Shown here piece by piece: positions 8,647 through 53,737 of a stretch of 64,000 bases of DNA (positions within the stretch are counted from its first letter, which is position 1; every line of letters begins with the position of its first letter). The notes beneath the pieces are model-generated. The model saw nothing but the letters and a program-made list of their open reading frames with translations, was not told where the DNA came from and did no database searches. Source of the DNA: Candidatus Calidihabitans tengchongensis (GTDB lineage Bacteria > Sysuimicrobiota > Sysuimicrobiia > Sysuimicrobiales > Kaftiobacteriaceae). Made by a program: the position numbers and the translations under genes. Location of the stretch: positions 8,291 through 72,290 of the forward strand of contig JAVKIE010000009.1 of NCBI GenBank assembly GCA_031459615.1, written 5' to 3'.

Positions 8647-10218
8647 GTGGGCAGACGAACGCCTTTCGCGGTGTGCGTGGTCCTGACGGGCGCTCTGCTG
8701 ATTTCCCCAGGCACCGTTGCACGGGCCTCCGAAGGAGGACACGGGGCCTGCGGGGGTGCCGCCGCGCGCCTGGAGGGTGGCCGCGTGGCGTCGCCGGCGG
8801 TGTCCCCGGACGAGCTGACCGTCGAGGCGGATCGGATCGTCTACGACGATGCCGCCCGGACGGTGGAGGCCGTGGGACGGGTTACCCTCGCCTACCGCGG
8901 GATTGGTGTGCGGGCCGATGTGGTCCGCGTGGACCTGGACGCCGGACGCGTGGAGGCCCGCGGGCACGTCATCATCCTGGACTCCCAGGGACGGGAGATG
9001 CGGGGAGATGTCCTCGTCTATGACGCCCGGCACGAGGCCGCCGAGCTGGCGCCGGCCGAGACGATCGTCAGCGGCGTGTACGTGCGCGCCGCGCAGGTGC
9101 GGGCCACCCGCGAGCGCATCGAGGCCACCGACGCGACCCTCACCACCTGCCATCCCGCCGCGCCTCCCTACCGCGTCACCGCCCAGCGCCTGGAGGTCAT
9201 TCCCGACGACCGCGTGACGGCGTACGGGGCCACCTTGTGGGCGGGCCGCCACTGGCTCCTCGGCCTGCCGGTGCTGGTGGTGTCCCTGCGCAGCCCCCAG
9301 GAGACCGCGGGGAGCTTTCCGAGCGTCGGATACAACAACGTCGACGGGCTGTGGGCGGCCTACAGGTACGCCTTTCCCACGGGCACGCCGCGCGCTGATG
9401 TGTCCGCCGCCCTGGGGACCCTGGCCCAGCGGGTCGAAGGCGGCCTGAGCCTCTCCCCGCAGCCGCTGGCGGGATCATTCCTGTGGTCGGCCGCCGTCCG
9501 CTACGGGTGGCACCGGGAGCAGGGGACAGGCGTCGAGACGACCAGGTTGCGCTATGAGGCGGGCGTGCACCTTCCCCCTGTGGCGTTGGGCCCGACGACC
9601 GAGGCGAGGGCAGCCTGGACCTGGCGGCAGGCCACCTACGCCACCGGCGACCGCCTGGAGACGGCGGTGGCGGACGTGGCGGTCACCCACCGCCTGGGAC
9701 CGCAGGCGCTGCTGTCTTTGACCCACGCCCAACTGCGCCCGGCGGGAACGACGCCGCTGGCCGTGGATGTCGTCAATCCCGCGGACATCGTCGACCGCGT
9801 GACACTGGCCTATGAGACATCCGGCCTGCGGGACGGCACCGTGGCCACCAGGTTTTCCGCCTCGGCCTCCTATGACTTTCTCACGGAGACCCCGTCGGTC
9901 GGCGTGTCCTACGGTGAGCGGATCCCGGGCGCCTACCACTGGACGGTGGGTCCGGCCTACAATCTCACCACCCGCGCGACCACCCTGCGGGCCGACGTCG
10001 GATGGGCCCTGGGGACCGACGCCTACGTCACCGTTCGGGGGACATACAATACGACCACGGCGCTGTTCGAGGACCTGGATTATATCCTCACGGCGCAGGT
10101 CGAGGGCTGTTTTGAGCTCTCGGTCGAGTACCGCCAGGTCCGCCAGGAGCTGTGGGTCTCCCTGGGCCTGGCGGCGTTTCCCCAGGCTCAGATGCAGTTT
10201 CAGTTCCGGGGTCCCTGA
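8647..10218 (+). CDS. LptD/OstA-like protein with an OstA_N beta-jellyroll and a C-terminal beta-rich domain, carrying a signal peptide.
   Basis: The GTG start gives MGRRTPFAVCVVLTGALLISPGTVARA-SEGG, a signal peptide. The OstA-like segment ADRIVYDD...TLTTCHPAAPPYRVTAQRLEVIPDD matches LptD. The SD is weak, with the GGAGG run about 18 nt upstream. Confidence 0.55.
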   Translation: MGRRTPFAVCVVLTGALLISPGTVARASEGGHGACGGAAARLEGGRVASPAVSPDELTVEADRIVYDDAARTVEAVGRVTLAYRGIGVRADVVRVDLDAGRVEARGHVIILDSQGREMRGDVLVYDARHEAAELAPAETIVSGVYVRAAQVRATRERIEATDATLTTCHPAAPPYRVTAQRLEVIPDDRVTAYGATLWAGRHWLLGLPVLVVSLRSPQETAGSFPSVGYNNVDGLWAAYRYAFPTGTPRADVSAALGTLAQRVEGGLSLSPQPLAGSFLWSAAVRYGWHREQGTGVETTRLRYEAGVHLPPVALGPTTEARAAWTWRQATYATGDRLETAVADVAVTHRLGPQALLSLTHAQLRPAGTTPLAVDVVNPADIVDRVTLAYETSGLRDGTVATRFSASASYDFLTETPSVGVSYGERIPGAYHWTVGPAYNLTTRATTLRADVGWALGTDAYVTVRGTYNTTTALFEDLDYILTAQVEGCFELSVEYRQVRQELWVSLGLAAFPQAQMQFQFRGP

Positions 10219-10238
10219 CGATCTTGAGTCGTGGAGTT

Positions 10239-10283
10239 GATTGAGTAGATTGAGCCGATTGCGCAGATTGCGTAGATTGAATG
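10239..10283 (+). repeat. Five tandem copies of a 9-bp unit, GATTG(A/C)(G/A)(T/C)N, ending at the phosphomannomutase start codon.
   Basis: gattgagta gattgagcc gattgcgca gattgcgta gattgaatg. It is a relatively AT-rich patch in a 70% GC window. Confidence 0.8.
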
Positions 10284-11674
10284 TGGTGACCATCTCCCCG
10301 ACGATCTTCCGCGAATACGACATCCGCGGTGTGGCCGGGCGCGACATCACCCCCGAGGTCGCCGAGGCCATTGCCCGGGCGTATGCGTCCTACCTGCGCA
10401 CAGAGGGGGCACAGGAGCGCGAGACTCCGGTCCTGGTGGGCAGGGACAACCGCGAGAGCTCTCCGTGGATCCGCGACGCCGTGGTGCGCGGCCTGGTGGG
10501 AAGCGGATGCCGCGTGGTGGACATCGGCACGGTGATCACCCCGGTCTTCTACTTCGCCCGGGTGCACTACGGCATCGACGGCGGGGTGATGGTCACCGCC
10601 AGCCACAACCCGCCCGAGTTCAACGGCTTCAAGCTGGCCCACGGATTCGGCACCCTGTACGGCGAGCAGATCCAGCAGATCCGCCGGCTGACGGAGGCGG
10701 GGGAGTTTGTCGGGGGGGTCGGGTCCGTGGAGGCCCGCGACGTGATCCCCGCGTACCGGGCGATGCTCCGGGAAAAGGTCCGCCTGGGTCCGCGGCGGCT
10801 GCGGGTGGTGGTGGACTGCGGTAACGGCACCGCCAGCCTGGTGGCCCCCGACGCTCTGGAGGACCTGGGGGTGGAGGTCGTCCGCCTGTACTGCGAGTCC
10901 GACCCGCGCTTTCCCCACCACCACCCCGACCCGGTGCAGCCGGAGAACCTGCGCGACCTGATCGCCGCCGTGCGCCGCGAGGGCGCCGACGTGGGCTTCG
11001 GCTTTGACGGCGACGGGGACCGGCTGGGGGTGGTGGACGACCGGGGCGAGATCGTCTGGGGCGACATCCTGATGATCCTGTTCTGGCGGGAGATCCTGCC
11101 CCGCCACCCCGGGACGGTGGGGATCGTGGAGGTCAAGTGCTCCCAGGCGCTGTACGACGAGATCCAGCGCCTGGGCGGCCGGCCCATGTTCTACCGCACC
11201 GGCCACTCCCTCATCAAGGCCAAGATGCGCGAGGTGGGCGCCGTCTTCACCGGCGAGATGTCGGGCCACATGTTCTTCGCCGACGAGTACTACGGCTACG
11301 ACGACGCCGTCTACGCGGCGGCCCGGCTGCTGCGGATCCTCTCCCACACCGACCGGCCCCTGTCGGCGCTGCTGGCCGACGTGCCCCGCTACCCGGCCAC
11401 CCCCGAGGTCCGCGTGGACTGCCCCGACGAGGTGAAGTTCGAAGTCGTCCGCTCCCTCACCGAGCAGTTCAAGCGGGAGGGCTACCCGGTGATTGACGTG
11501 GACGGGGCCCGGGTGCTGTGTGCGGACGGGTGGGGCCTGGTGCGGGCCAGCAACACCCAGCCGGTCCTGGTCCTGCGGGCGGAGGCCCGGACGCCGGAGG
11601 GCCTGGAGAGGATCAAGCGCACCCTGGAGCAGGCGCTGTCCCGTTTCGCCGACGTCGGTCCCGTGCGCTGGTGA
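10283..11674 (+). CDS. Phosphomannomutase/phosphoglucomutase (alpha-D-phosphohexomutase family).
   Basis: TIFREYDIRGV, the active-site loop TASHNPPEFNGFK and the metal loop FGFDGDGDRLG are all present. The start could instead be TTG 10241 with a GGAG SD, which would make the repeats coding. Confidence 0.8.
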   Translation: MVTISPTIFREYDIRGVAGRDITPEVAEAIARAYASYLRTEGAQERETPVLVGRDNRESSPWIRDAVVRGLVGSGCRVVDIGTVITPVFYFARVHYGIDGGVMVTASHNPPEFNGFKLAHGFGTLYGEQIQQIRRLTEAGEFVGGVGSVEARDVIPAYRAMLREKVRLGPRRLRVVVDCGNGTASLVAPDALEDLGVEVVRLYCESDPRFPHHHPDPVQPENLRDLIAAVRREGADVGFGFDGDGDRLGVVDDRGEIVWGDILMILFWREILPRHPGTVGIVEVKCSQALYDEIQRLGGRPMFYRTGHSLIKAKMREVGAVFTGEMSGHMFFADEYYGYDDAVYAAARLLRILSHTDRPLSALLADVPRYPATPEVRVDCPDEVKFEVVRSLTEQFKREGYPVIDVDGARVLCADGWGLVRASNTQPVLVLRAEARTPEGLERIKRTLEQALSRFADVGPVRW

Positions 11675-11863
11675 CGGCCGGTCCGTCCGCCGGACGACGC
11701 GTGGGCGCCCCGGGCACTCCCGCGATCCGGTCCCGCCGCCTCACCCGGCACGCTGCTCAGGCGGCGGCCGCGGTGCCGCACCGGGCGGGGACCTGACGAC
11801 GCGGGGATGGACCTGGGTAGGCAGACAGGCCTGGAGGGCGGCCCGGGAGAATTTCTCACACCC

Positions 11864-12889
11864 GTGAAGGCCATCATCCCCGCCGCCGGGATGGGGACGC
11901 GGCTGCGGCCCCACACCTTCACCCAGCCCAAGGCCCTGCTGCCGGTGGCCGGGCGGCCGATCCTGGCCCACATCGTGGACGAGCTGTCCGCCTGCGGCGT
12001 CGACGAGGTCATCCTGGTGCTGGGCTACCTGGGCGAGCGGGTGATCGACTTCGCCCGCAGGCGCTATCCGCACCTGACCGTGCGCGCCGTCTGGCAGGAG
12101 CAGCCCCTGGGCAACGGCCACGCCGTCTACGTGGCCCGGGAGTACCTGGACGGCACGCCGGCGGTCATCATCTTCGGCGACACCATCGTCAAGGGCGACC
12201 TGGCCGCCCTGGTGCGCGGCCCGCACTCCCTGGCCGGGGTGAAGGAGGTGGCCGACCCCCGGCGGCTGGGGGTGGTGGAAGTGGACCGGGAGGGCTTGAT
12301 CCGGCGCATCGTGGAAAAGCCGGAGGTGCCGCCCAGCCGCCTGGCGGTGATCGGCGTCTACTACATCACCGACACCCTGGCCCTGCGCGAGGCGCTGGAG
12401 CGGCTGGTGGCCGAAGACCGCCGCCAGCGGGGGGAGTTCTGGCTGGCCGACGGGCTGCAGCTGATGCTGGACCGGGGGGTGCCGATGCGGCCGTTTGCGG
12501 TCGAGCGTTGGTACGACTGCGGGACCGTGGAGGCGTGGCTGCAGGCCAACCGGGACCTGCTGGCGCTGGACCCCCCGCCGGTCCCGGAGGGGCTGGGCGG
12601 GACGGTGATCCCCCCCTCCTACGTCAGTTCCTCGGCGACCCTCGAGGGGTCGGTGGTGGGCCCCCATGCGTGCGTGGGGGATGAGGTCCGGGTGGTGCAC
12701 TCCACGGTCCGGGACTCGATCCTCCTGCCGCGGGCGGTCGTGGAAGACGCCCACCTGACCGCCTCGGTGGTGGGCGAGGGCGCGGCGGTGCGCGGGGTGC
12801 GGGGACGGGTCAACATCGGCGATGCCTCGCGCGTGGAGGGCGCGTCTGGAGAGGCCGGCGGCGCGGGCAGAGACCCGATGCCGCCATGA
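11864..12889 (+). CDS. Sugar-1-phosphate nucleotidyltransferase with a C-terminal left-handed beta-helix (mannose-1-P guanylyltransferase / RmlA-GlmU-like).
   Basis: The GTG start gives VKAIIPAAGMGTRLRP, the NTP-transferase signature. Confidence 0.75.
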   Translation: MKAIIPAAGMGTRLRPHTFTQPKALLPVAGRPILAHIVDELSACGVDEVILVLGYLGERVIDFARRRYPHLTVRAVWQEQPLGNGHAVYVAREYLDGTPAVIIFGDTIVKGDLAALVRGPHSLAGVKEVADPRRLGVVEVDREGLIRRIVEKPEVPPSRLAVIGVYYITDTLALREALERLVAEDRRQRGEFWLADGLQLMLDRGVPMRPFAVERWYDCGTVEAWLQANRDLLALDPPPVPEGLGGTVIPPSYVSSSATLEGSVVGPHACVGDEVRVVHSTVRDSILLPRAVVEDAHLTASVVGEGAAVRGVRGRVNIGDASRVEGASGEAGGAGRDPMPP

Positions 12890-13821
12890 GGCACCGGCTG
12901 CCTGCTCTACCCGCCGCCCTCGCGATCCTGCTGGGTGGACTGCTCGCCCTCTCCGGGCCTGCCGGCGCCTCCTCCAGGGCACAGACGTACGTAGTTCGCC
13001 CGGGCGACACCCTGTGGGCCATCGGCGCCCGTCTGGGGGTGCCAGCCAACACCCTGGCGCAGGCCAACGGAATCTCGGATCCGGAACGACTGGTCCCCGG
13101 GCAGGTCCTGCGGGTGCCGGCGGGGCCGGCCTCGCGGCGGCCTCCTTCCTCCGGCACCCGGCCGGCCGCTGCATCACGGGGTCCGGCGCTGGTGGTCGCC
13201 GTCCACCGGGTGCGGTGGGGCGACACCCTGCTGGCCATCGCCCGCCGCTACCGCGTCCCCGTCGAGTGGATCGTCCGGGCCAACGGGCTGTGGTCGGACA
13301 GGATCCACCCCGGCCAGCGCCTGGCGATTCCCACCCGGCGGGGAGTGGAGGTGCTGGCGCGCCGCCACGGACCTCCCCCGCGCCCGATCCCGGTGCCCCC
13401 GGCCGCGTTCGCGCGCTCGGCGGCGGCCGGAACGGCGGCGTGGGATCTGGTCCAGCGGGCACGCCGGTACCTGGGCGTCCCCTACCGCTGGGGCGGCGAG
13501 TCGCCTGCGGGGATGGACTGCTCGGGGCTGGTGCACCGGGTCTTCGCCCCGTACCTGTCGGGGGTGGGGCGGCTGACCTCCTACGACTACTTCCGCCTCG
13601 GCCGGCCGGTCCGGCCGGAGGCGATCCTGCCGGGCGACGTGGTGTTTTTCACCACCGACGAGCCGGGGCCGTCCCACGTGGGGATCTTCATCGGCGCCGG
13701 CCTGTTCATCCACGCCTCCTCGGCCGCGGGCGAGGTCACCGTCACCTCCCTGGACGACCCGCTGTACCGGGAGCGCTTCCTCGGGGTGCGGCGCCTGGTC
13801 GACCTGTCGGCGCGCAATTGA
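12886..13821 (+). CDS. Secreted peptidoglycan hydrolase with two LysM domains and an NlpC/P60 domain.
   Basis: Signal peptide. Two copies of [13 protein letters not shown]...NGI; Cys/His catalytic region MDCSGLV ... SHVGIF. Confidence 0.85.
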
Positions 13822-43504: not shown

Positions 43505-44566
43505 GTGACAGCCACAGACCAGGCCGTCCGCGTCCGCCTGGACGGGGTGACCAAGACATTCGGCCCGGTGGTGGCGGTGGACCGGGTGACCCTGGACATC
43601 CCGCCGGGGCGTCTGGTCACGCTCCTGGGCCCGTCGGGGTGCGGGAAGACCACCACCCTGCGGATCATCGCGGGGCTGGAGAAGCCCACCGCGGGGCGCG
43701 TGTACATCGGCGAGGAGGACGTCACCCCGCTGCCGGCGGCCAGCCGGGGAGTGACCCTGGTCTTCCAGGCCTACGCCCTGTTCCCGCACCTCACGGTCTT
43801 CGAGAACGTCGCCTACGGCCTGCGGGTACGGCGCCTGCCCGAGTCCGAGATCCGCCGGCGGGTGGCGGAGGCGATGGCCCTGGTGGGACTGCCAGGGCTG
43901 GAAGACCGCTACCCGGCCCAGCTGTCCGGCGGCCAGCAGCAGCGGGTGGCGGTGGCCCGGGCCCTGGTGATGCAGCCCCGCGTGCTGCTGTTCGACGAGC
44001 CGCTGTCTAACCTGGACGCCAAGCTGCGCAAGCGGGTGCGGGCGGAGATCCGCGACCTGCAGCGGCGGCTGGGCATCACCACCATCTATGTCACCCACGA
44101 CCAGGCCGAGGCCCTGGCCCTGTCGGACGTGGTGGTGGTGATGAACCAGGGAAAGGTGGAGCAGGTGGGCACGCCCGAGGAGCTGTACCGGCGGCCGGCC
44201 AGCCGCTTTGTGGCCGACTTCATCGGAGAGGCCAACCTCCTGCCCGGCCACTACCACGACGGCCAGGTGACCCTGGGGCCGTACCGCTTCGCCTTCCGGC
44301 AGGAGGGCGCACCGTCCGGGGCGGTCACAGTGATGGTCCGCCCGGAAGCGGTCGCCATCGCCACCGACGGGGAGGGCCTGCCCGGCCGGGTGCGGGCGGG
44401 GTTCTTCATGGGCATGACGCTGGAGTACCTGGTCGAGACCCTCCTGGGCGAGGTGACGGCGGTCGAGCCGCTGTCCGAGCGGGGCCTGCTGCCGCCGGGG
44501 ACGTCGGTGGTCCTGCGGATGAGGCCGGCGGGTGTGTACCTGCTGCCGGGGGAGGATAGACCGTGA
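43505..44566 (+). CDS. ABC ATPase (FbpC/PotA type).
   Basis: GPSGCGKTT, LSGGQQQR, LLFDEPLSNLD. Confidence 0.9.
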   Translation: MTATDQAVRVRLDGVTKTFGPVVAVDRVTLDIPPGRLVTLLGPSGCGKTTTLRIIAGLEKPTAGRVYIGEEDVTPLPAASRGVTLVFQAYALFPHLTVFENVAYGLRVRRLPESEIRRRVAEAMALVGLPGLEDRYPAQLSGGQQQRVAVARALVMQPRVLLFDEPLSNLDAKLRKRVRAEIRDLQRRLGITTIYVTHDQAEALALSDVVVVMNQGKVEQVGTPEELYRRPASRFVADFIGEANLLPGHYHDGQVTLGPYRFAFRQEGAPSGAVTVMVRPEAVAIATDGEGLPGRVRAGFFMGMTLEYLVETLLGEVTAVEPLSERGLLPPGTSVVLRMRPAGVYLLPGEDRP

Positions 44567-45678
44567 GGCGCGGTGCGCGGGCGCGGACCAGGGGCCCGTC
44601 GGCCGGACAGCAGGGCCCCCTGGGTGCACCAGGGAGGGTGGCCGGCCGCACGGCCGGGGGCGCGGCGTTCTCCCCCGACGCGTTTCTTCCCCCCGCAGCC
44701 GTCGCCCGCATCACCGACGTCCGCATTCAGCGGCCGCAGGTGGTGGAGGAGGAGGCCGCCGCCCGGCGGCGGCGGGAGCAGATCGCGCCCGACGGGCGCC
44801 TGGTCCTGCTGGCCGCCGACCACCCGGCGCGCGGCGTCCTGCGGGCCGGGGCGGACCCGCTGGCCATGGGCAGCCGCCGGGCGCTGCTGGCCCGCATCCT
44901 CCGGGTCCTGATCGGCCGGGCGGACGGCGTGATGGCCACCCCGGACATCCTGGAGGAGCTGATGATCCTCCAGCGGCTCGACAAGGAGCGCGGCGGGCCG
45001 GGCTTTCTGGACCACAAGGTGCTGGTCGGGTGCATGAACCGGGGCGGGCTGCACGGCAGCGCCTTCGAGCTGGACGACCGCATGACGGCCTTCACCCCCG
45101 AGCGCATCGCCTCCCTGGGGCTGGACGGGGCCAAGGTCATGGTGCGGGTGGACCTCTCCGATCCGGCCACCCTGCGGACCCTGGAGGCCTGCGCCCGGGC
45201 GGTGACCGCCTGCCACCAGCGGGGGCTGCCGGTGTTCCTGGAGGTGATGATGGTCGCCCGCGGCCGGGAGGGCTACCGGGTGGTCCGGACGCCGGAAGCG
45301 CTGGTGACGGTGGTGAACATCGCCACCGGTCTGGGGGCCTCCTCTGCGCGGACGTGGCTGAAGGTGCCCTACTGCCCGCAGTTCGAGCGGGTGGCGGAGG
45401 CCACCACGTGCCCCCTGCTGCTGCTGGGCGGCGAGACGCGGGGGGCGCCGGGTCCCCTGCTGGAGGAGGTGGCCGCGGCGATGCGGGCCGGCCCGTCGGT
45501 GCGGGGAGTCCTGGTGGGCCGCAGCCTCACCTACCCCGGTCCCGAAGACCCCTACGCCGCCGCCGAGGCCCTGTGGGCGGTGGTGCACGAGAAGGCCTCG
45601 GTGGACGAGGCCCTGGCGAGGATGGCGGAGGCCCGCGGGCGCCATATGGACCGCTTCGCCCACCTGGCGGCGACCTAG
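44563..45678 (+). CDS. Class-I aldolase superfamily protein (DeoC/FbaB/LacD or DUF2090-like TIM barrel).
   Basis: Weak family-level resemblance only; the long Arg-rich N-terminus is unusual. GTGA overlap with the ATPase gene. Confidence 0.45.
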   Translation: MRRGARARTRGPSAGQQGPLGAPGRVAGRTAGGAAFSPDAFLPPAAVARITDVRIQRPQVVEEEAAARRRREQIAPDGRLVLLAADHPARGVLRAGADPLAMGSRRALLARILRVLIGRADGVMATPDILEELMILQRLDKERGGPGFLDHKVLVGCMNRGGLHGSAFELDDRMTAFTPERIASLGLDGAKVMVRVDLSDPATLRTLEACARAVTACHQRGLPVFLEVMMVARGREGYRVVRTPEALVTVVNIATGLGASSARTWLKVPYCPQFERVAEATTCPLLLLGGETRGAPGPLLEEVAAAMRAGPSVRGVLVGRSLTYPGPEDPYAAAEALWAVVHEKASVDEALARMAEARGRHMDRFAHLAAT

Positions 45679-45716
45679 CCGTGGCCGCCCGACCTCAGAG
45701 GGAAGGAGGGACGACG

Positions 45717-46505
45717 GTGCTGCGGTTTTCCGCGAACCTGACCATGCTGTTCACCGAGCGCCCGTTCCTGGAGCGCTTCGAAGCTGCCGCCCGCGCCGGG
45801 TTCCGGGCGGTGGAGTACATGTTCCCCTACCAGGAGGACACCGACGCCATCGCCCGCGCCCTGCGGGAGCTGCGGCTGGAGCAGGTCCTGTTCAACCTGC
45901 CGGCCGGAGACTGGGCCCGGGGCGACCGGGGGATCGCCACCGACCCCGCCCGGCGCGCCGAGTTCCGGGAGGGGGTGGAGCGGGCGGTGGACCTGGCGCG
46001 CCGGTTCGGCTGCCGGCGCCTGAACTGCCTGGTGGGCCGCCGGCTGGCCGAGGTCCCCGCCGACGAGCAGTGGCGGTGCCTGGTGGACAACCTGCGGCAT
46101 GCGGCCCAGGCGCTGGCGCCCCACGGCATCACGCTGCTGGTGGAGCCCATCAACACCTACGACATCCCCGAGTTCTTCCTGACCACCTCCGCCCAGGCCA
46201 TCCGCCTGCTGGACGAGGTGGGCGCGCCCAACGCGGCGTTGCAGTACGACGTCTACCACATGCAGCGCATGGAGGGGAACCTCGTGCACACCCTGCGCCG
46301 CCTGCACGGGCGCATCGGCCACGTGCAGGTGGCCGACTCCCCGGACCGCCACGAGCCCGGCACCGGCGAGATCCACTACCCGTACGTGCTGCGCCAGCTG
46401 GAGGCGCTGGGCTATGCGGGATTCGTGGGGCTGGAGTACCGGCCCAGCCGGACCACGGAGGAGAGCCTGGGGTGGATCGAAGCGATGGGGTTCAGCCGGG
46501 GCTGA
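45717..46505 (+). CDS. hyi: Hydroxypyruvate isomerase / 2-oxo-tetronate isomerase family.
   Basis: LRFSANLTMLF ... LLVEPIN ... QYDVYHMQ ... HVQVAD. The GTG start has an upstream GGAAGGAGG. Confidence 0.8.
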   Translation: MLRFSANLTMLFTERPFLERFEAAARAGFRAVEYMFPYQEDTDAIARALRELRLEQVLFNLPAGDWARGDRGIATDPARRAEFREGVERAVDLARRFGCRRLNCLVGRRLAEVPADEQWRCLVDNLRHAAQALAPHGITLLVEPINTYDIPEFFLTTSAQAIRLLDEVGAPNAALQYDVYHMQRMEGNLVHTLRRLHGRIGHVQVADSPDRHEPGTGEIHYPYVLRQLEALGYAGFVGLEYRPSRTTEESLGWIEAMGFSRG

Positions 46506-46645
46506 CGCTCCGGCCAGCGGGCCCCCCGCCGCCCGGGCCCCGGCGGCGCCGGGCCGGGGGTGCGCGGGCGGCCGGGACGGCGATGCCAGGACTCCCCACG
46601 GGGGGAGGCAGAACTCCAGCAGAGGAGGTGAGGAGGGTGGCCATC

Positions 46646-47986
46646 ATGCGTGGGATAGCCGCGGCCGGTCTGGTGCTGGCGCTGCTGGTGCTCGCTCCGG
46701 CCTATGCACAGCAGGCGGTGACCCTCACCGCCTGGACCATCGGTCCGGACAACCCGTCGGTGACCCGCTTTTCCAACCTGCAGGCGGCGGCGGAGCGGCT
46801 CAACGCCGACCTGCGGCGGGAGGGCGCGGGGGTCCAGGTCAAGGTGGAGGGGTTCTTCGATACGACCGACTGGGATCCGTTCCTGCGCCGGGTCCTGCTG
46901 GCGTTCCAGGGCGGGAACCCTCCCGACATCATCCAGGCGTCGCACCCGCTGACCACCACCTGGGCGGCGGCCGGGTACATCATCGCCCTGGACGACCAGA
47001 TCCCCCGCTACCGGCAGTTCGCCGACGTGGTGGAGTCCCTGTGGGACGCGGTGCGCTACCGCGGCAAGATCTACGGCATCCCCCAGGACACCGAAGCGCG
47101 CCCCCTGTACTTCAACAAGACGCTGCTCCGGCAGCTGGGGTGGACCGACCAGCAGATCGCCGCCCTGCCCCAGCGCATCGTCCGGGGCGAGTTCACCTGG
47201 GAGGACGTGCTGGCCACCGCCCGGGAGGCCGTGCAGAAGAAGGTCGTGGAATCCGGCAAGGGCTACTACCACCGGCCGCGCCCGGGCCCGGACTTCCTGC
47301 AGTGGTACCGGTCCTTCGGGGGACGCGACTTTGACGCCGCCAGCGGCAAGCTGGTCTTCACCCGGGAGGCAGCCCTGCGCTACTTCCGCTGGCTGCGCGC
47401 GGCCGTGGACGCCGGGGTGCTGGAACGCAACCGGCTGGACGGTGACTGGAACCGCTTCCACCAGACCGTCACCGACGGCAAGGTGCTGTTCTTCTCAGGC
47501 GGGACGTGGAACTGGGCCGAGTGGGAGCAGCAGTGGGTGACCCGCAAGGGCGGACAGGAGTGGCTGTTCGCCAACTTCGGCTTCGCCCCCCACCCCACCT
47601 GGCGGCAGGGCGGGCGGCCCATCACCCTCTCCCAGCCCCAGGCCTACATGGTTTCCTCCGCGTCCAAGAACAAGGCGCTGGCGGTGCGGCTGCTGGCCTA
47701 CACCACGGTACCGGACCTGGACGCCAAGCACGCGGTGGGCAGCGCCCACCTGCCGGTGCTGAAGACCACCGCCCGGCTGATCGGCGACCGCTTCCTGAAG
47801 GAGGTGAGCTACCTGCTCACCTACACCTCTTTCCAGCCGCCCCATCCCGACCTGCCCCGCTGGAATGACGCCCTGTTCCGGGGCGTCTCGGCGGTGGAGT
47901 CCGGGCAGGTGACGCCCGAGCAGGCGGTGGAGGTGGTGGCCACCGAGATGCAGCGGGCCCTGCGGGACCAGATCATCGTCGAGTAA
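46646..47986 (+). CDS. CUT1-type ABC substrate-binding protein, in a glycerophosphodiester/G3P-like context.
   Basis: Signal peptide with an upstream GAGGAGG. Co-operonic with the GDPD genes. Confidence 0.8.
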   Translation: MRGIAAAGLVLALLVLAPAYAQQAVTLTAWTIGPDNPSVTRFSNLQAAAERLNADLRREGAGVQVKVEGFFDTTDWDPFLRRVLLAFQGGNPPDIIQASHPLTTTWAAAGYIIALDDQIPRYRQFADVVESLWDAVRYRGKIYGIPQDTEARPLYFNKTLLRQLGWTDQQIAALPQRIVRGEFTWEDVLATAREAVQKKVVESGKGYYHRPRPGPDFLQWYRSFGGRDFDAASGKLVFTREAALRYFRWLRAAVDAGVLERNRLDGDWNRFHQTVTDGKVLFFSGGTWNWAEWEQQWVTRKGGQEWLFANFGFAPHPTWRQGGRPITLSQPQAYMVSSASKNKALAVRLLAYTTVPDLDAKHAVGSAHLPVLKTTARLIGDRFLKEVSYLLTYTSFQPPHPDLPRWNDALFRGVSAVESGQVTPEQAVEVVATEMQRALRDQIIVE

Positions 47987-47991
47987 CCCGG

Positions 47992-48017
47992 GCGGGTGCG
48001 GGCAATTCCGCACCCGC
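47992..48017 (+). promoter_or_regulatory. Intercistronic stem-loop immediately after the SBP stop codon.
   Basis: 10-12-bp stem gcgggtgcgg/ccgcacccgc with a gcaatt loop. Confidence 0.5.
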
Positions 48018-48028
48018 TCCCTCGCCCC

Positions 48029-48997
48029 ATGGCGGAGTCGGACCGGATCGCAGCCCAGGCGGAGGCCGAGGTCGCACCCGCTCGGGTGGCCGCGGGGGCG
48101 CGGGTGGCGCGCGCGGCCACGCCGGCTCTGTTCCTGCTGCCGGCCGGCGTGCTGATCGCGCTGTTCTTCCTGGTGCCCGTGGCGACCACCCTGTACCTCT
48201 CCCTCACCGACATCTCCACCCTGACCTTCCGCCAGCCCCGGTGGGTGGGGCTGGCCAACTACCGGGACCTGCTCACGGATCCGTTTCTGCCCCGGATCCT
48301 GCTGAATACGGTCCGCTACGTGGTCCTGACGCTGCTGTTCAACGTCGGGATGGGGCTGACGCTGGCCGTGCTGACCACCGCCGTGCGGCCGGGGATCGGC
48401 AACCAGGCGCGGGCCCTGTGGCTGCTGCCCCGCATCCTGCCGCCGGTGGTGTACGTGCTGGTGTGGCAGGGGATCAGCCGGGAGGCACCGTACGGGCTGC
48501 TGGGCATCCTCACCGGCAGCTCCCGGGGGTGGATCACCAGCCATCCGTGGGCCACGGTGGTCCTGGCCAACGGGCTGGTGGGGGCGTCGTTCGGCATGCT
48601 GATCTTCACGTCGGCGATCCGGTCCATCTCCCCCGAGCTGTTCTACGCGGCGGCGGTGGACGGGGCCACCACCTGGCAGACGGTGCGGCGGGTGGTCCTG
48701 CCGCTCCTGCGCTGGCCCATCCTGTTCGTCACCGCCTACCAGACCCTGTCCCTGCTGACGTCCTTTGAGTACATCCTCCTGCTCACCGACGGCGGCCCGG
48801 GTTTTTACACCACCACCGTGTGGTCGCTGCACGCCTACAAGCTGGCCCTGTCCAATTACTACGGCAACGTCCAGTTCGGCCTGGGCGCCGCCATGGCCGC
48901 CGTCCTGGTCGTGGTCGGGGTGGTGGTGTCGGTGGTGTACCTGCGGGTGTTCAACTTCCGTCAGCTGGTGGGCGAGCCCAGGATCGAGGTGTCCTGA
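48029..48997 (+). CDS. ABC permease (UgpA/MalF type).
   Basis: The ATG is the first start after the hairpin. TM helices and an EAA loop are present. Confidence 0.8.
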   Translation: MAESDRIAAQAEAEVAPARVAAGARVARAATPALFLLPAGVLIALFFLVPVATTLYLSLTDISTLTFRQPRWVGLANYRDLLTDPFLPRILLNTVRYVVLTLLFNVGMGLTLAVLTTAVRPGIGNQARALWLLPRILPPVVYVLVWQGISREAPYGLLGILTGSSRGWITSHPWATVVLANGLVGASFGMLIFTSAIRSISPELFYAAAVDGATTWQTVRRVVLPLLRWPILFVTAYQTLSLLTSFEYILLLTDGGPGFYTTTVWSLHAYKLALSNYYGNVQFGLGAAMAAVLVVVGVVVSVVYLRVFNFRQLVGEPRIEVS

Positions 48998-49821
48998 TGC
49001 CCCTGCTGCCTCCCCGGTGGCGCCTGCTGGTGGCCGCTCTGGCCCTCCTGAGCCTGCCCATCGTCGCCGGGGTGCTGTGGCTGTTGCTGACCGGGTGGTT
49101 TGACCGGGTGCACGGCCTGCTGCCCGTGGGCGGGTGGTCGCCGGGAAACTGGCGGTTTCTGTGGCAGCCCGTGGGCGGCCGGCCGCCTCTGCGGGTCCCG
49201 CTGGTGAACTCCCTGGTCTTCGCCGTCGTGGTGGCCGGCCTGGAGGTGGTGGTGGCGTCCCTGGCCGCCTACGCCATCTCCCGGATGTCGTTTCCCGGAC
49301 GGCGGGCGTTTCTGGGACTGGTCCTGGTCCTGCACGCCTTTCCGGCGGTGAGCCTGCTGATCGCCATCTTCTACATCCTGCGGCTGCTGGGACTGTTCGA
49401 TACCCTGGTGGGGGTCATCCTGGTCAAGGTGGCCCTGGAGCTGCCGCTGGGGATCTGGCTGATGAAGGGCTTTTTCGACTACCTGTCCTGGGAGATCGAA
49501 ATGGCCGCCCTGGTGGACGGCATGTCCCGGTGGGGCGTGTTCTGGCGGATCGCCCTGCCCCTGGTGCGGCCGGGACTGCTGGCCCTGGGCACCTTCGCGC
49601 TGCTGTCGGCGTGGGGCGAGTTCATCCTGCCGTTCACCCTGATCGTCAGCAGCCAGCGGTGGACCATGGCCATGTACATGCAGAGCTTCCTCAGCGAGGC
49701 GTTCACCGATTTCGGAATGATGGCCGCCGTGGGGCTGACCTACGCGGCCCCGGTGCTGGTCCTGTTCGTCCTGGGCCAGCGCTACCTGCTGAGCATCTAC
49801 GCAGGGGGCGTCAAAGGGTGA
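48997..49821 (+). CDS. ABC permease (UgpE/MalG type).
   Basis: TGATG overlap with the preceding permease; EMAALVDG EAA loop. Confidence 0.85.
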   Translation: MPLLPPRWRLLVAALALLSLPIVAGVLWLLLTGWFDRVHGLLPVGGWSPGNWRFLWQPVGGRPPLRVPLVNSLVFAVVVAGLEVVVASLAAYAISRMSFPGRRAFLGLVLVLHAFPAVSLLIAIFYILRLLGLFDTLVGVILVKVALELPLGIWLMKGFFDYLSWEIEMAALVDGMSRWGVFWRIALPLVRPGLLALGTFALLSAWGEFILPFTLIVSSQRWTMAMYMQSFLSEAFTDFGMMAAVGLTYAAPVLVLFVLGQRYLLSIYAGGVKG

Positions 49822-50864
49822 AGGGCATCCGACTACGGTTGGAGCGGCTGAGCAAACGCTTTGGCCGGGTGGTGGCGGTGCACGCTCTGGACCTCGAGGT
49901 CGGGGCCGGGGAACTGGTGGCGTTTCTGGGACCCTCCGGATGCGGCAAGACCACCACGCTGTTGATGATCGCCGGCATCTACCAGCCCACCAGCGGAGCC
50001 ATCTATTTTGACGACCGCCGGGTGGACCACCTGCACCCCCGGGACCGGGACGTGGGGATGGTCTTCCAGTCCTACGCCCTGTATCCCCACCTGACCCTGT
50101 TTGAGAACATCGCCTTCCCCTTGCGGCTGAAGCGGCTGCCCGCCGGCGAGGTGGCCGCCCGGGTCCGGCGCACCGCCGAGCTGCTCGGCATCGCACCCCT
50201 GCTGGACCGCTACCCCGCCCAGGTGTCCGGCGGCCAGCAGCAGCGGGCCGCGCTGGCCCGGGCCCTGGTCAAAGAGCCGCAGGTCCTCCTCCTGGACGAG
50301 CCGCTGTCCAACCTGGACGCCCAGATCCGGGTGCAGGCCCGGGGGGAAATCCGCCGGCTGCAGCAGGAGCTGGGGGTGACCACCATCCTGGTGACCCACG
50401 ACCAGGCCGAGGCGCTGGCCATGGCCGATCGGGTGGCGGTGTTTTCCACGGGCCAGCTGCTCCAGGTGGCCTCTCCCGACGAGCTGTACCGCCGGCCCGC
50501 CACCACGTTCGTCGCGCGGTTTGTGGGCCACCCGCCCATGAACCTGCTGGACGGGACGTTCGCCGACGGCCAGTTCATCGCCGGGGGTCGCCGCCTGCCC
50601 CTGCCGGTGCGGATCCCGCCGGGCCCGGGATATCTGGGGGTACGGCCCGAGGACCTGCACCTTCAGGGGGACCTGGCGGGCCGGGTGGTCGTGGTGGAAT
50701 CCCTGGGCCGCCAGGCGCTGGTGACGGTGGACCTGGACGGAGTGGAGCTGAAGGTCCTGGTGGACCAGGCCCGGCGCCCGGCGGTGGGAGCCCGGGTCGG
50801 CGTAGGGGTGGAGGTCGACCGGGTGCACCTCTTCGACGCGTCCGGCGTCCGGATCGGCCCATGA
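49818..50864 (+). CDS. ABC ATPase (UgpC/MalK/MsmX type) with a C-terminal TOBE domain.
   Basis: GPSGCGKTT, VSGGQQQRAALARAL, LLLDEPLSNLD. It is the only CUT1-type ATPase in the window. Confidence 0.9.
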   Translation: MKGIRLRLERLSKRFGRVVAVHALDLEVGAGELVAFLGPSGCGKTTTLLMIAGIYQPTSGAIYFDDRRVDHLHPRDRDVGMVFQSYALYPHLTLFENIAFPLRLKRLPAGEVAARVRRTAELLGIAPLLDRYPAQVSGGQQQRAALARALVKEPQVLLLDEPLSNLDAQIRVQARGEIRRLQQELGVTTILVTHDQAEALAMADRVAVFSTGQLLQVASPDELYRRPATTFVARFVGHPPMNLLDGTFADGQFIAGGRRLPLPVRIPPGPGYLGVRPEDLHLQGDLAGRVVVVESLGRQALVTVDLDGVELKVLVDQARRPAVGARVGVGVEVDRVHLFDASGVRIGP

Positions 50865-51775
50865 CGCTGCCCGGGGGCCTGTTCTGGCGGGGCCGGCGGG
50901 TCCTGCTCAAGTACCACAAGCTGCTGTCGGGCACCGGCCGTCACCCGCCCAACAGCCTGTCCGCCCTGCGGGAAGTCCTGGACGGCGGAGCGGAGGTCAT
51001 CGAGTTCGACATCCAGCCCCTGGCCGACGGGGACTACGCCGTGCTCCACGATGAGCGGCTGGAGTCTGAAACCACCGGATGGGGGCCGGTCCGGGCATGC
51101 GCGCGCGCGGACCTGAAGACGCTGCGCCTGCGCGGCTCCGACGAACCCCCGGCCACGCTGTCAGACGTGGTCGAGGTGCTGGCCGCCGTCCGGCGGCCGG
51201 TGAAGGTCCAGGTGGACTGCAAGGAGTGGCGGCCGTGGTCGGAAGAGCGCGCCCGACACCTCCTGGGGGCGCTGGAGCCCCTGCGGCGCGTCCCCGCCCT
51301 GCGCGTGGTGGTGGGCTGCTTGGGCGACTGGAACCTGCGGTTGCTGCGCCGGCTGGATCCGACGGTGGCGGTGGGACTGGACTGGATGTTCTATCTGGAC
51401 GGCCCTGCGGACGAGCACGCACGGCTGCCCACCCGCGTCAACGCCTACGGCTACCTGGACGATCACCCCCTGGGCTTCCGCCGGATCCTGCCCCCCGCTG
51501 CCTACCTGGCCGACCGGGTGGACAGCCTCTGCCGCCTGGTGGAGGGGGCGCAGGAGGTCTACCTGCGCAAGGAGTTCCTGCTGCAGGCGCTGGCCGACGG
51601 CTTTAACCCGGTCCCGTTCCTGCGGCAGCGCCTGGGCCGGCCCGTGGTGGTGGACGTCTGGACCCTCAACGAGGGGCCCGACAGTCAGAACGACCTGCGG
51701 GCGGTGCTGGAGGCCGGCGTGGACCAGGTCACTACCGACACCGCCGTCCAGCTGGCCGCCCGCGTGCCCCCATGA
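50861..51775 (+). CDS. Glycerophosphodiester phosphodiesterase family protein (divergent).
   Basis: EFDIQ...DGDYAVLHDERL is a GDPD-like HD...E.D pattern. ATGA overlap with the ATPase gene. Confidence 0.7.
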   Translation: MTLPGGLFWRGRRVLLKYHKLLSGTGRHPPNSLSALREVLDGGAEVIEFDIQPLADGDYAVLHDERLESETTGWGPVRACARADLKTLRLRGSDEPPATLSDVVEVLAAVRRPVKVQVDCKEWRPWSEERARHLLGALEPLRRVPALRVVVGCLGDWNLRLLRRLDPTVAVGLDWMFYLDGPADEHARLPTRVNAYGYLDDHPLGFRRILPPAAYLADRVDSLCRLVEGAQEVYLRKEFLLQALADGFNPVPFLRQRLGRPVVVDVWTLNEGPDSQNDLRAVLEAGVDQVTTDTAVQLAARVPP

Positions 51776-52509
51776 GCGCGTGGCTGCGGGCCGGGCGTCT
51801 GCTGGTGATCGCCCACCGGGGGGCGTCGGCCGCAGCGCCGGAGAACACCCTGGCGGCGTTCCGGCGGGCGGCCGACGACGGCGCCGACGGCATCGAGCTG
51901 GACGTGCGCGCCACCTCCGACGGCCATCTGGTCGTCCTCCACGACGCCGACGTCTCCCGGACCACCGACGGCGCCGGTGCGGTGGCCGCGCTGACCCTGG
52001 CCCAGCTGCGGCGGCTCGACGCCGGGTCGTGGTTCGGCCCGGCGTTTGCCGGAGAGCGGGTGCCCCTGCTGGAGGAGGTCCTGGGGTGGGCCCGCGGCCG
52101 CCTGCTGGTGGACGTGGAGGTCAAAGCGGCCGGGCTGGAAGACGCCCTGGTGGAGGTGGTCCGCCGGACCGGGACGGCGGATCAGGTGCTGGTCTCCGCC
52201 TTCGATCCTCAGATTCTGGTGCGCACCCGCGAGCGGGCGCCAGACCTTCCTCTCGGCCTGCTGCAGGTCCTCCCCGATCCCGACGCGGCCGCCGCCCTGG
52301 GGGTGCCCGTGTGGCTGCCCGCGGTGGCCGCGCTCACCGACGGGCTTCTGCGGCGGTCCCGGGAGCGGGGACTGCGGGTCATCCCCTGGACGGCGCACAC
52401 CGAAGCGGATCTGCGCCGCGCCGCCGCCCTCGGAGTGGACGGGATCATCGTGAACGACCCGGCGTGGGCCCGCCGGGTGCTCACTTCTCGGGTTCCACCA
52501 GCCCCTTGA
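51772..52509 (+). CDS. Glycerophosphodiester phosphodiesterase.
   Basis: IAHRGASAAAPENTLAAF...GIELDVRATSDGHLVVLHD is the canonical GDPD active site. Confidence 0.85.
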   Translation: MSAWLRAGRLLVIAHRGASAAAPENTLAAFRRAADDGADGIELDVRATSDGHLVVLHDADVSRTTDGAGAVAALTLAQLRRLDAGSWFGPAFAGERVPLLEEVLGWARGRLLVDVEVKAAGLEDALVEVVRRTGTADQVLVSAFDPQILVRTRERAPDLPLGLLQVLPDPDAAAALGVPVWLPAVAALTDGLLRRSRERGLRVIPWTAHTEADLRRAAALGVDGIIVNDPAWARRVLTSRVPPAP

Positions 52510-53272
52510 CGAACCACCGCTGCATGATCACCACCACCGCCACCGGCGGCAGCATGGCCAGCAGGGCCGTGGCCATGATCAGGGGCCAGTCCACCAGGGC
52601 CTCCCCCGTCCCGATCATGCGGGTGATGCCGATGACCACGGTCTCCATCTGCTGGCCGGTGGTGACCAGCAGGGGCCACAGGTACTGGTTCCACCCGTAG
52701 ATGAACAGGATGACGAACAGGGCGGCCGTGGTGGTCGAGGACAGCGGCAGGGCCACGCTCCAGAAGAACCGCATGGGGGTCGCCCCATCCACCTTGGCGG
52801 CGTCCACCAGCTCGTCGGGGATGGTGAGGAAGAACTGGCGGAAGATCAGGGTGGCGGTGGCAGACGCGATCAGGGGGATGGTCAGGCCGGGAAACGTGTT
52901 GACCAGCCCCAGGTCGGCCACCACCTTGTAGGTGGGGATGATGCGGACCTCCACGGGCAGCATGAGGGTGATGAAGATCATCCAGAACAGGGCCATCCGC
53001 AGGGGGAACTCGAAGAACACCACCGCGAACGCCGACAGCAGGGAGATGGCGATCTTGCCGGTGGCAATGGTCAGGGCCATGATCAAGCTGTTGCGCATCA
53101 TCCGCCGCACCGGGGGAGCCTGGACCCGCTCGCCGGTGCCGGTGCGCCACGCCCGCCCGTAGGTGTCGACCAGGTGGGGGCCCGGCCGCAGGCCCATCTC
53201 GCCCCGGGCCACGGTGCCCAGGTCGTGGGTGGACCCCACAAACGCCACGTAGACCGGGAAGGCGAAGACCAT
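52481..53272 (-). CDS. ugpE: sn-glycerol-3-phosphate ABC permease UgpE. It is an orphan: no ugpA, ugpB or ugpC is adjacent.
   Basis: About 65% identical by eye to enterobacterial UgpE over the whole length. The start may lie about 60 nt further upstream, overlapping the glpP fragment. It converges on the GDPD gene with a 29-nt overlap. Confidence 0.75.
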   Translation of the reverse strand: MVFAFPVYVAFVGSTHDLGTVARGEMGLRPGPHLVDTYGRAWRTGTGERVQAPPVRRMMRNSLIMALTIATGKIAISLLSAFAVVFFEFPLRMALFWMIFITLMLPVEVRIIPTYKVVADLGLVNTFPGLTIPLIASATATLIFRQFFLTIPDELVDAAKVDGATPMRFFWSVALPLSSTTTAALFVILFIYGWNQYLWPLLVTTGQQMETVVIGITRMIGTGEALVDWPLIMATALLAMLPPVAVVVIMQRWFVKGLVEPEK

Positions 53273-53577
53273 CACCCCCACCAGCAGCGTGAGGTGGGGG
53301 TGCTGATGACGCCGGCGATCCCGGGGATGGAGCGGACGAACTGCACCGCCGCGCGGTCCGCCGCCAGGCCTTCGGTCAGGTCCATGTGGATCAGCACCAT
53401 CTTGCCGGCCCCCGACAGGCGGCCCACCAGGGCGGGTAGGGAGAGGACCGATCCGGTCAGCAGGAAGGCCGTGGAGACGGGCGAGGCCGCGGCCACGCCC
53501 GCGGCGGCCTCGCTGCGAACGGCGGCGATGACCGGGCGGGCTCGCAGCGGCGCCCAGGGATCGGCAGGTGAGGCCAT
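53272..53577 (-). pseudogene. Truncated glycerol-3-phosphate-responsive antiterminator (GlpP family). Only the first roughly 100 of about 185 residues remain, ending at the ugpE junction.
   Basis: PVIAAVRSE...LLTG.VL.L..LV...AGK.VLIHMDL.EGL..D.AAVQF...GIAGVISTPTS matches the GlpP N-terminal half. The C-terminal half is absent in all frames. It has its own GAGG SD. Confidence 0.55.
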
Positions 53578-53696
53578 GACGGGGCCTCATTTCGGGGCGG
53601 GCGCACGCCCTTCCTGTGCGGCGCAGGAGATGCGGCGACGGGGGCCGAAACCATCCCGCGCAGGTAGTCGCACGTGGCAGGACGGAGTCGCGGAGA

Positions 53697-53737
53697 CAGT
53701 CCTGCCGGCCGGAGTGCCGGCGGCCGGCAGGACTTTT
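53697..53737 (+). terminator. Orphan intrinsic-terminator-like hairpin in the 320-bp gap between the glpP fragment and the GH31 gene.
   Basis: 13-bp perfect stem agtcctgccggcc/ggccggcaggact with an 11-nt loop, then TTTTg. The nearest plus-strand gene ends about 1.2 kb upstream. Confidence 0.45.

Follow-up and report, generated by a model that had tools for sequence, protein, structure and literature searches.

The adjoining fragments of glpP and ugpE on the minus strand of the window (i.e., the whole 64-kb stretch of DNA analysed here) are, with a probability that we put at about 0.9, the join left by a single recent deletion, 4,845 bp long, in a glp/ugp gene cluster. The deletion is an ordinary, very recent and segregating loss of function. 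The intact allele was recovered in contigs L014 (GCA_031459585.1) and L015 (GCA_031459435.1), which belong to sister metagenome-assembled genomes (MAGs), and the ancestral allele still persists in the same hot-spring population as the deletion allele. The host, an uncultivated thermophile, is represented by MAGs from Tengchong hot springs and belongs to the phylum CSP1-3 (“Sysuimicrobiota”, for which NCBI uses the label Armatimonadota).

The deletion junction and the intact allele

Contigs L014 and L015 are 100% identical across 5,266 nt and encode GlpP (200 aa), orf71, GlpK (508 aa), UgpB (444 aa), UgpA (293 aa) and the N-terminus of UgpE, the gene order in L014 being glpP> orf71> <glpK ugpB> ugpA> ugpE>. 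When aligned to L014, window positions 53718–53298 match positions 1–421 and window positions 53297–52922 match positions 5267–5642, both at 100% identity. One contiguous segment (L014 422–5266) is missing from the window and separates the intact allele from the scar. With these 4,845 bp were lost the C-terminal 107 residues of GlpP (94–200), orf71, glpK, ugpB, ugpA and codons 1–12 of UgpE; in tblastn searches of all frames, the window contains no UgpB, GlpK, GlpD or C-terminal half of GlpP (residues 94–200). The coordinates of the remnants and of the neighbouring operon are given in Table 1.

Table 1. Features of the glpP–ugpE junction and of the adjacent plus-strand operon (window coordinates).
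Feature	Position	Strand	Details
glpP upstream region with GAGG Shine-Dalgarno	53578–53718	−	identical to L014 1–141
glpP' native part	53299–53577	−	codons 1–93 of the 200-codon glycerol-3-phosphate-responsive antiterminator gene; 100% identical to L014 GlpP 1–93
Deletion junction	53298	−	single C common to L014 421 and L014 5266
Out-of-frame GlpP' tail (PTSRCWWG + TGA)	53272–53297	−	ugpE codons 12–21 in the wrong frame (translation comparison)
'ugpE remnant	52481–53297	−	third base of codon 12 to stop of the 283-codon ugpE
CUT1 substrate-binding protein (SBP), InoE-like by annotation, not UgpB	46646–47986	+	Pfam SBP_bac_1
Two CUT1 permeases, MalF/MalG type	48029–48997, 48997–49821	+	Pfam BPD_transp_1
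MalK/UgpC-like ABC ATPase with TOBE	49818–50864	+	Pfam ABC_tran + TOBE_2
GDPD1, divergent GDPD-family, 304 aa	50861–51775	+	Pfam GDPD, E 6e-17
GDPD2, canonical, UgpQ-like, 245 aa	51772–52509	+	Pfam GDPD, E 7e-54

Mechanistically, illegitimate recombination at the level of microhomology would have joined the first base of glpP codon 94 to the third base of ugpE codon 12. At the ugpE breakpoint is an octamer, CCACCTCA, with a second copy 4 nt inside the glpP breakpoint; by a hand estimate, such a repeat would be met within 10 nt by chance with a probability of about 3e-4, but its role in the deletion is suggestive only, as its glpP-side copy is displaced by 4 nt from the join. Excision of a mobile element was rejected, since the deleted segment bears no recombinase gene and its ends share only 1 nt, i.e., it has no terminal repeats. 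An inversion or a tandem duplication relative to the related contig L007, also considered as the origin of the window arrangement, became needless once L014 had provided an intact allele from the same species. Before the deletion, the order on the minus strand of the window would have been <GH31, glpP> orf71> <glpK ugpB> ugpA> ugpE>, <GDPD2.

The earlier note had interpreted this locus as the old and decayed scar of an ancestral ugpBAEC/glpP unit. A deletion scar it is, and its remnants do not look like a working pair, but no ugpC went missing and glpK was lost too, while the supposed age is contradicted by the remnants themselves: across 421 + 377 nt, neither of them differs from the intact allele at a single position, which means that no decay has built up and that the deletion cannot be older than the population's own diversity (0.03–0.08%). 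The two observations that the note had named as fatal to its reading, a full-length glpP hidden by a frameshift and ugpA or ugpB nearby, were both sought and neither is present.

Remnants of glpP and ugpE

The glpP' ORF (53272–53577) has 101 codons, of which 93 specify native residues and 8 are out of frame. The join is out of frame, and the GlpP frame ends 8 codons on, at a TGA overlapping the internal Met21 of ugpE, hence the TGATG at 53274–53270; this motif arises automatically when GTG ATG of ugpE is read out of frame. The glpP gene of about 100 codons and the TGATG of the note are thus confirmed, but glpP is not cut off exactly at the ugpE start, as the junction base (53298) sits 25 nt upstream of TGATG. 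The fragment has retained its own Shine-Dalgarno, as the note had stated (GAGG, 7 nt ahead of the ATG). The encoded protein matches Pfam G3P_antiterm (PF04309) over positions 1–80 out of 173 (E 5e-17), which leaves the domain incomplete, and the conserved C-terminal half is gone. Most of the stretch over which GlpP aligns with the solved homologues 3kts and 1vkf (residues 35–190; 38–188 for 3kts alone) was deleted. With under half of one domain, GlpP' is predicted to be non-functional. No sigma-70 consensus promoter was found in the glpP upstream region, sigma-70 and terminator scans of the junction region and of L014 did not exceed shuffled expectation, including for terminators in the L014 leaders, and an Rfam scan of the whole window returned no matches. 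A 369-aa ORF (52481–53590) that runs in the ugpE frame through glpP' was treated as a high-GC artefact, no Shine-Dalgarno being seen before its ATG.

On the other side of the junction, the 263-aa 'ugpE ORF (52481–53272) begins at the internal Met21 of a protein that counts 283 aa here and in close homologues. Its product, UgpE', scores 365.2 bits (E 2.7e-109) against the NCBIfam UgpE equivalog NF008210 (cut-off 297), yet over positions 22–281 out of 281 only, short of a full-length UgpE (~281–283 aa with TM1). It is 92% identical to residues 13–283 of the full-length UgpE of L007 and 63–66% identical to UgpE of Enterobacteriaceae and Pantoea. The latter values agree with the ~65% given for a lone convergent ugpE in the note; the gene is not intact, its codons 1–12 being deleted. 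The absence of a ugpA or ugpB partner, also noted there, was borne out, with no UgpB match in the window and permeases that are just paralogues (28–34% identity). The hydropathy peak of TM1 drops from 2.45 in full-length UgpE to no more than 1.19 in UgpE'. The TGATG overlap may permit re-initiation, in which case truncated UgpE would be made; without TM1 and without UgpA or UgpB, it is nevertheless probably non-functional. In carriers of the deletion, Ugp-mediated uptake of glycerol-3-phosphate and glycerophosphodiesters, glycerol phosphorylation at this locus and control by GlpP would all be gone.

The cluster in related species

In all related species examined, no ATPase gene stands beside ugpBAE, which implies that no ugpC was lost in the deletion; an intact Ugp system would then have to use an ATPase encoded elsewhere. 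In L007, at first the closest full-length relative recovered (92% for UgpE), the layout is <glpK ugpBAE> <GH31 <glpD glpP> GDPD>. In another relative (L012, 93% identical), ugpA-ugpE converge with a short ORF whose sequence can be aligned to the 3' end of the window's GDPD2.

Distribution of the two alleles

The data come from 39 metagenomes, each with its own metaSPAdes assembly at k up to 127 (PMC11604079). The exact 40-nt junction occurs in contigs of nine independently assembled MAGs and in two Logan assemblies of raw runs, while the intact allele is assembled in two MAGs. Moreover, contigs from three MAGs and two further Logan assemblies end exactly at 53298: five contigs on the glpP side stop at L014 421 and two on the ugpE side at L014 5266, both of which map to window position 53298. 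Such ends are expected where one sample holds both alleles. Contig L004 crosses the junction and ends 126 nt beyond it, which fits k=127 (an overlap of k-1 at a true branch). Up to the breakpoint, unique flanking sequence extends for 37 kb and >11 kb in the contigs that end there, so the two forms are allelic rather than paralogous; contigs with the whole CUT1 operon also reach this point, at which the assembly splits into the two alleles. Within-sample allele frequencies are read from contig ends only. In one intact-allele contig, the last 67 nt are an inverted copy of the contig's own sequence, an assembler artefact.

The deletion-carrying MAGs, which are incomplete genomes, yielded no full-length GlpP, and a second glpK, glpP or ugp locus may lie elsewhere in them. 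The closest paralogues (P0127, GlpP 77%; P0012, UgpE 84%) occur only in other MAG accessions and probably belong to other species. Among GTDB species representatives scanned with UgpE', none is of this species, the best match being 81% identical; in JGI metagenome contigs, neither the exact junction nor the intact 5' end of ugpE had a match.

The plus-strand operon

The earlier note had listed an SBP, two permeases, a UgpC-like ATPase and two GDPDs on the plus strand, a list upheld by Pfam and gene calls, and had called the whole a glycerophosphodiester uptake operon. This name holds for the two co-encoded GDPD hydrolase genes, but not for the transporter, as the SBP and the permeases are not of the Ugp family. 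The SBP has no hit to the UgpB equivalog and no tblastn match to UgpB, the permeases reach 55 and 50 bits vs. NCBIfam UgpA/UgpE cut-offs of 335 and 297, and the ATPase, at 364.6 bits, remains below the NCBIfam UgpC subfamily cut-off (432). Homologues of the SBP are called [quoted passage not shown] in IMG, and the nearest solved SBPs bind sugars. Judging from these source annotations, the operon would be a separate, InoEFGK-like CUT1 system and not Ugp.

The operon adjoins Cgl0159-like and AP_endonuc_2 genes. A distant relative (L115), whose SBP is 53% identical, shares the Cgl0159/AP_endonuc_2-SBP-permease-permease-ATPase-GDPD module, accompanied there by LacI and GFO_IDH_MocA and, within the 17-kb locus read, by no ugp locus. 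Its 301-aa GDPD occupies the same position after the ATPase, and GDPD1 is a conserved member of the Ino-like module. In translation, GDPD1 shows HKL and PNS in place of the HRG and ENT of GDPD2. The latter is 44% identical to the GDPD after glpP in L007 and overlaps the 'ugpE 3' end with its final 29 nt.

Alternative explanations

At face value, the glpP–ugpE join might be a chimeric contig born of assembly or binning, the real genome having only the intact form: the data consist entirely of short-read MAGs, several contigs stop right at the join and the 67-nt inverted end shows that the assembler did err in one intact-allele contig. This is highly improbable, since the two sides share 1 nt, on which a de Bruijn assembler (k=21–127) cannot falsely join them, since the identical 40-nt junction came out of nine per-sample metaSPAdes assemblies and two Logan assemblies, and since L004 stops beyond the junction where a true branch predicts. 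The displacement proposed in the note, according to which an old ugpBAEC/glpP unit decayed after the neighbouring CUT1 system had taken over its function, is very unlikely as well. Some functional overlap is conceivable, with two GDPD genes and a UgpC-like ATPase next door, and the deletion allele is the commoner one among assemblies (nine MAGs vs. two). However, the CUT1 operon adjoins the intact ugp allele too, and as the two coexist, nothing was displaced. The perfect identity of the remnants leaves no room for an event older than the diversity of the population, and the convergence of ugpE on an ORF resembling the 3' end of GDPD2 in L012, the non-Ugp SBP and permeases with their inositol-phosphate annotation, the module of L115 without an adjacent ugp locus and the lack of any ugpC to lose in related clusters all speak against displacement.

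A function for the remnants, whether GlpP' as a small regulator or, as the note had suggested, a dominant-negative fragment, or a re-initiated UgpE' paired with another CUT1 permease, is the least probable reading of all. The glpP upstream region and its Shine-Dalgarno are intact, TGATG could couple translation and the deletion allele is common; yet the TGATG is an automatic product of the ugpE sequence, GlpP' amounts to less than half of a single domain without its conserved C-terminal half, UgpE' lacks TM1, and the deletion is too young for selection to have left a trace. In the deletion-carrying MAGs, moreover, there is no full-length GlpP found with which a fragment could interfere. Finally, the deletion itself could be non-neutral and reflect ecotype differentiation, with a lineage that sheds glpK/ugpBAE/glpP, keeps an inositol-phosphate-type importer and sweeps in most samples. 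We consider this unlikely, and its variant in which the retained glpP'-'ugpE unit, taken as transcribed, gained a regulatory role less likely still. If the ecotype reading were true, one hot-spring lineage of Sysuimicrobiota would have dropped the uptake and catabolism of glycerol and glycerol-3-phosphate.

Significance and relation to known systems

Under the preferred reading, that of a recent segregating deletion, the locus is a clean, base-resolved case of loss of function in an uncultivated thermophile; it raises no new mechanistic question but could act as a strain marker in Tengchong time series. The NCBI pipeline names the fragments “glycerol-3-phosphate responsive antiterminator” (101 aa) and “UgpE” (263 aa), and metabolic reconstructions of these MAGs would wrongly give deletion carriers Ugp transport and GlpP control. 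With its single join, 1 nt shared, a nearby 8-nt direct repeat, both flanking genes truncated and intact and deleted alleles in the same samples, the locus resembles other microhomology-mediated segregating deletions, from which no notable feature sets it apart; neither a mobile element nor a recombinase nor a long repeat is involved.

As in UgpBAE(C) of E. coli and others, UgpB and UgpA of the intact allele (523 bits vs. an NCBIfam equivalog cut-off of 411 and 351 vs. 335, respectively, in L014) and the 'ugpE remnant pass equivalog cut-offs, and the order ugpB-ugpA-ugpE is kept in the intact allele; in contrast, neither this species nor its relatives have a ugpC after ugpE, and the window retains only a 5'-truncated ugpE. 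The 200-aa GlpP of the intact allele aligns with 3kts, like GlpP of the B. subtilis type (PF04309; 3kts, 1vkf), and stands within a glp/ugp cluster, as in Firmicutes and in the Glp regulon of Thermotoga (PMC3750489), whereas the window copy is limited to residues 1–93 and the host phylum is far from the characterised examples. As for the plus-strand operon, its likeness to Thermotoga maritima InoEFGK, the transporter of the Ino regulon (PMC3750489), is one of annotation and gene neighbourhood (IMG name of the SBP homologues, neighbouring genes of inositol clusters). Unlike InoEFGK, the window module also has a divergent GDPD, and its ligand may accordingly be glycerophosphoinositol or a related diester.

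Remnant genes and intact allele

The glpP–ugp locus of the window carries the scar of a recent 4.8-kb deletion, resolved here to the base. The deletion still segregates, is predicted to be a loss-of-function event and is of an ordinary kind. Two minus-strand ORFs, encoding the remnant products GlpP' and UgpE', converge on a plus-strand block of six genes (Table). The earlier note gave a largely accurate account of these genes, with which Pfam, NCBIfam and gene calls agree, and its estimate of about 65% identity between UgpE' and enterobacterial UgpE holds (63–66% for Enterobacteriaceae and Pantoea). Identity reaches 70–72% with UgpE of Azospirillum, Trueperaceae and Deinococcota, an unusually high conservation across phyla, judging from these protein comparisons.

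The scar recognized in the earlier note was correctly spotted, as the intact allele exists. Complete UgpE proteins of close relatives have 283 aa, and the 90% cluster of the window protein includes a partial UgpE (P0125, 137 aa) with an intact N-terminus (MRRALAREPWLT), the remainder being identical to UgpE'. It is encoded on L014, a contig of a sister MAG (JAVKIF010000051.1, 5,642 nt), where the order is glpP, orf71, glpK, ugpB, ugpA and the start of ugpE. L015, from another MAG, is 100% identical to L014 across 5,266 nt; its end (5252–5318) is a 67-nt inverted self copy matching L014 4951–4884, which looks like an assembler hairpin artefact.

Table. Features of the window and of the intact allele on L014.
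Feature	Location	Strand	Evidence or size
CUT1 binding protein (SBP)	46646–47986	+	Pfam, public gene calls
Permease 1	48029–48997	+	Pfam, public gene calls
Permease 2	48997–49821	+	Pfam, public gene calls
MalK/UgpC-like ATPase with TOBE domain	49818–50864	+	Pfam, public gene calls
GDPD1 (GDPD family)	50861–51775	+	Pfam, public gene calls
GDPD2 (GDPD family)	51772–52509	+	Pfam, public gene calls
ugpE-like ORF (UgpE')	52481–53272	-	NCBIfam UgpE equivalog, 365 bits (cut-off 297)
glpP' ORF	53272–53577	-	101 codons; Pfam G3P_antiterm (GlpP), model positions 1–80 of 173 only
glpP	L014		200 aa
orf71	L014 872–1087		71 codons, between glpP and glpK
glpK	L014	opposite	508 aa
ugpB	L014		444 aa; NCBIfam equivalog, 523 bits (cut-off 411)
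ugpA	L014		293 aa; NCBIfam equivalog, 351 bits (cut-off 335)
ugpE, 5' part	L014, last in order		

Lost with the deleted segment are glycerol kinase, the binding protein and one permease of Ugp, part of its second permease, and over half of GlpP; the solved homologues of GlpP (3kts, 1vkf) align with its residues 35–190. Neither glpK, glpD, ugpB nor the C-terminal half of GlpP was found in any frame of the 64-kb window. The closest paralogues of GlpP (77% identical) and of UgpE (84%) were encountered only in other MAG accessions, probably of other species, and a second copy of the lost genes may lie elsewhere in the incomplete genomes carrying the deletion.

In the intact allele, the C-terminal ~45 residues of orf71 look like the end of a CUT1 permease, from its final transmembrane helix to the C-terminus (NCBIfam UgpE profile positions 235–276, E 9e-6; 27% identical to UgpE), and an earlier rearrangement at this locus may have left orf71 as a scar.

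Breakpoints and truncated products

L014 1–421 and 5267–5642 align without mismatch to window 53718–53298 and 53297–52922, respectively; the two segments are thus directly joined in the window, from which the intervening 4,845 bp (L014 422–5266) are absent. The two breakpoint sides share a single C. Moreover, the octamer CCACCTCA opens the retained ugpE side and recurs 4 nt into the deleted glpP side (chance ~3e-4, a hand estimate from base composition), which hints at microhomology-assisted illegitimate recombination.

The left breakpoint lies in glpP codon 94 (first base) and the right one in ugpE codon 12 (third base), so the two reading frames do not match across the join. GlpP' consists of 93 native residues followed by PTSRCWWG, and its stop is the TGA within ugpE's own '...GTG ATG...', hence its overlap with an ATG (TGATG, 53274–53270). 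Since this ATG encodes Met21, an internal residue of UgpE, glpP is not, as had been proposed, cut exactly at the ugpE start: ugpE is itself truncated. Over 19-residue windows, hydropathy peaks at 2.45 in the full N-terminus but at no more than 1.19 after truncation, and the first hydrophobic helix is predicted to be lost as a membrane-spanning segment. Both glpP' and 'ugpE are best regarded as putative pseudogenes, even if they may still be transcribed, given that the region upstream of glpP is unchanged (GAGG lies 7 nt 5' of its ATG). Both fragments (101 and 263 aa) nevertheless stand in NCBI records under the names of ordinary GlpP and UgpE proteins (e.g., MDR7402308.1, MDR7402309.1). In practical terms, the deletion warns against taking such annotations at face value and can serve to mark strains.

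A 369-codon ORF in the ugpE frame (52481–53590, minus strand) begins 13 nt before the ATG of glpP and is open across all of glpP'; it is probably a high-GC accident (G+C ~72% in the region), whose translation would place an Arg/Gly/Pro-rich leader in front of UgpE residues 13–283.

Two alleles in the hot-spring population

The MAGs with the locus (JAVK... accessions) are labelled 'Armatimonadota bacterium' at NCBI, and the raw runs (SRR27730012-50) are part of PRJNA973840. This project comprises the Tengchong hot-spring metagenomes on which the description of phylum CSP1-3 ('Sysuimicrobiota') is based; assembly with metaSPAdes (k from 21 to 127) and binning were run sample by sample for the 39 metagenomes (PMC11604079).

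The exact 40-nt junction is found in contigs from nine different MAGs and two Logan assemblies (SRR27730017, SRR27730039), while two MAGs (L014, L015) have the intact allele assembled across both breakpoints. In three MAGs and two further Logan assemblies (SRR27730040, SRR27730041), contigs stop exactly at window 53298, i.e., at L014 421 (glpP-side contigs) or 5266 (ugpE-side contigs). A false assembly join is very unlikely, as an overlap of 1 nt cannot produce a spurious de Bruijn join. One contig, L004, passes the junction and halts 126 nt beyond, as a true branch at k = 127 would predict (overlap of k-1). In the contigs that end at the breakpoint, unique flanking sequence continues right up to it, ~37 kb towards GH31/glpP and >11 kb towards GDPD2/ugpE; as the deletion and intact forms share both flanks, they are alleles and not paralogues. 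We conclude from these assemblies that both alleles appear to coexist in several samples, the deletion allele being the form most often assembled. With MAG-to-MAG divergence of 0.03–0.08% and no difference in 798 nt between remnants and intact allele, the deletion is no older than current population diversity; the dN/dS of glpP' and ugpE, proposed earlier as a check, has zero substitutions to be computed from.

The neighbouring operon

To the earlier note, the locus looked like the scar of a ugpBAEC/glpP unit displaced by the CUT1 operon. This operon also adjoins the intact ugp allele, so nothing was displaced, and in L012, a relative's contig (93% identical), ugpE converges with a short ORF aligning to the 3' end of GDPD2. 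Nor was an ancestral ugpC lost, as ugpC is absent beside ugpBAE in every related cluster examined. Ugp is presumably powered by an ATPase encoded elsewhere, possibly that of the adjacent operon, which scores 364.6 bits, below the UgpC cut-off of 432. The window has two MalK/UgpC-like ATPase genes (43521–44201 and 49822–50502), which show 70% DNA identity over 694 nt. These paralogues each serve one of two adjacent CUT1 systems, and either could be the missing Ugp ATPase.

NCBIfam gives Ugp equivalog status neither to the operon SBP nor to its permeases. The nearest solved binding proteins have sugars as ligands. IMG names SBP homologues 'inositol-phosphate transport system substrate-binding protein'; in Thermotoga, the Ino regulon transporter is InoEFGK (PMC3750489). 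A relative's contig, L115, has a module (5883–13032) with a fused AP_endonuc_2/Cgl0159 gene, an SBP 53% identical to the operon's, two permeases, an ATPase and a 301-aa GDPD, adjoined by LacI, AP_endonuc_2 and GFO_IDH_MocA genes. It matches window 44563–51775 (Cgl0159-like aldolase/AP_endonuc_2, SBP, permeases, ATPase, roughly 300-aa GDPD). Judged by annotation names and neighbouring genes, this core module is probably an importer of inositol phosphate or a glycerophosphoinositol-like substrate, and may thus not take up generic glycerophosphodiesters. GDPD2 is canonical by sequence (44% identical to the GDPD after glpP in L007, another relative's contig). GDPD1 is divergent (Pfam E 6e-17; NCBIfam 40 bits, cut-off 264), its translation showing HKL and PNS in place of GDPD2's usual HRG and ENT motifs, and the enzyme may not behave as a standard glycerophosphodiesterase.

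The ugp genes (ugpB 0.684, ugpA 0.679, 'ugpE 0.672; L014 2953–5232 and window 52481–53297) are lower in G+C than glpP and glpK (about 0.725) and the whole window (0.725), which, with the cross-phylum conservation of UgpE, may reflect a horizontal spread of ugp. Finally, the 3' end of ugpE is overlapped by a convergent gene, GDPD2 in the window (52481–52509) and a GH31 gene in L007 (10824–10852); these genes are unrelated, yet the overlap is exactly 29 nt in each, the opposite-strand stop codon evidently sitting in conserved ugpE 3' coding sequence.
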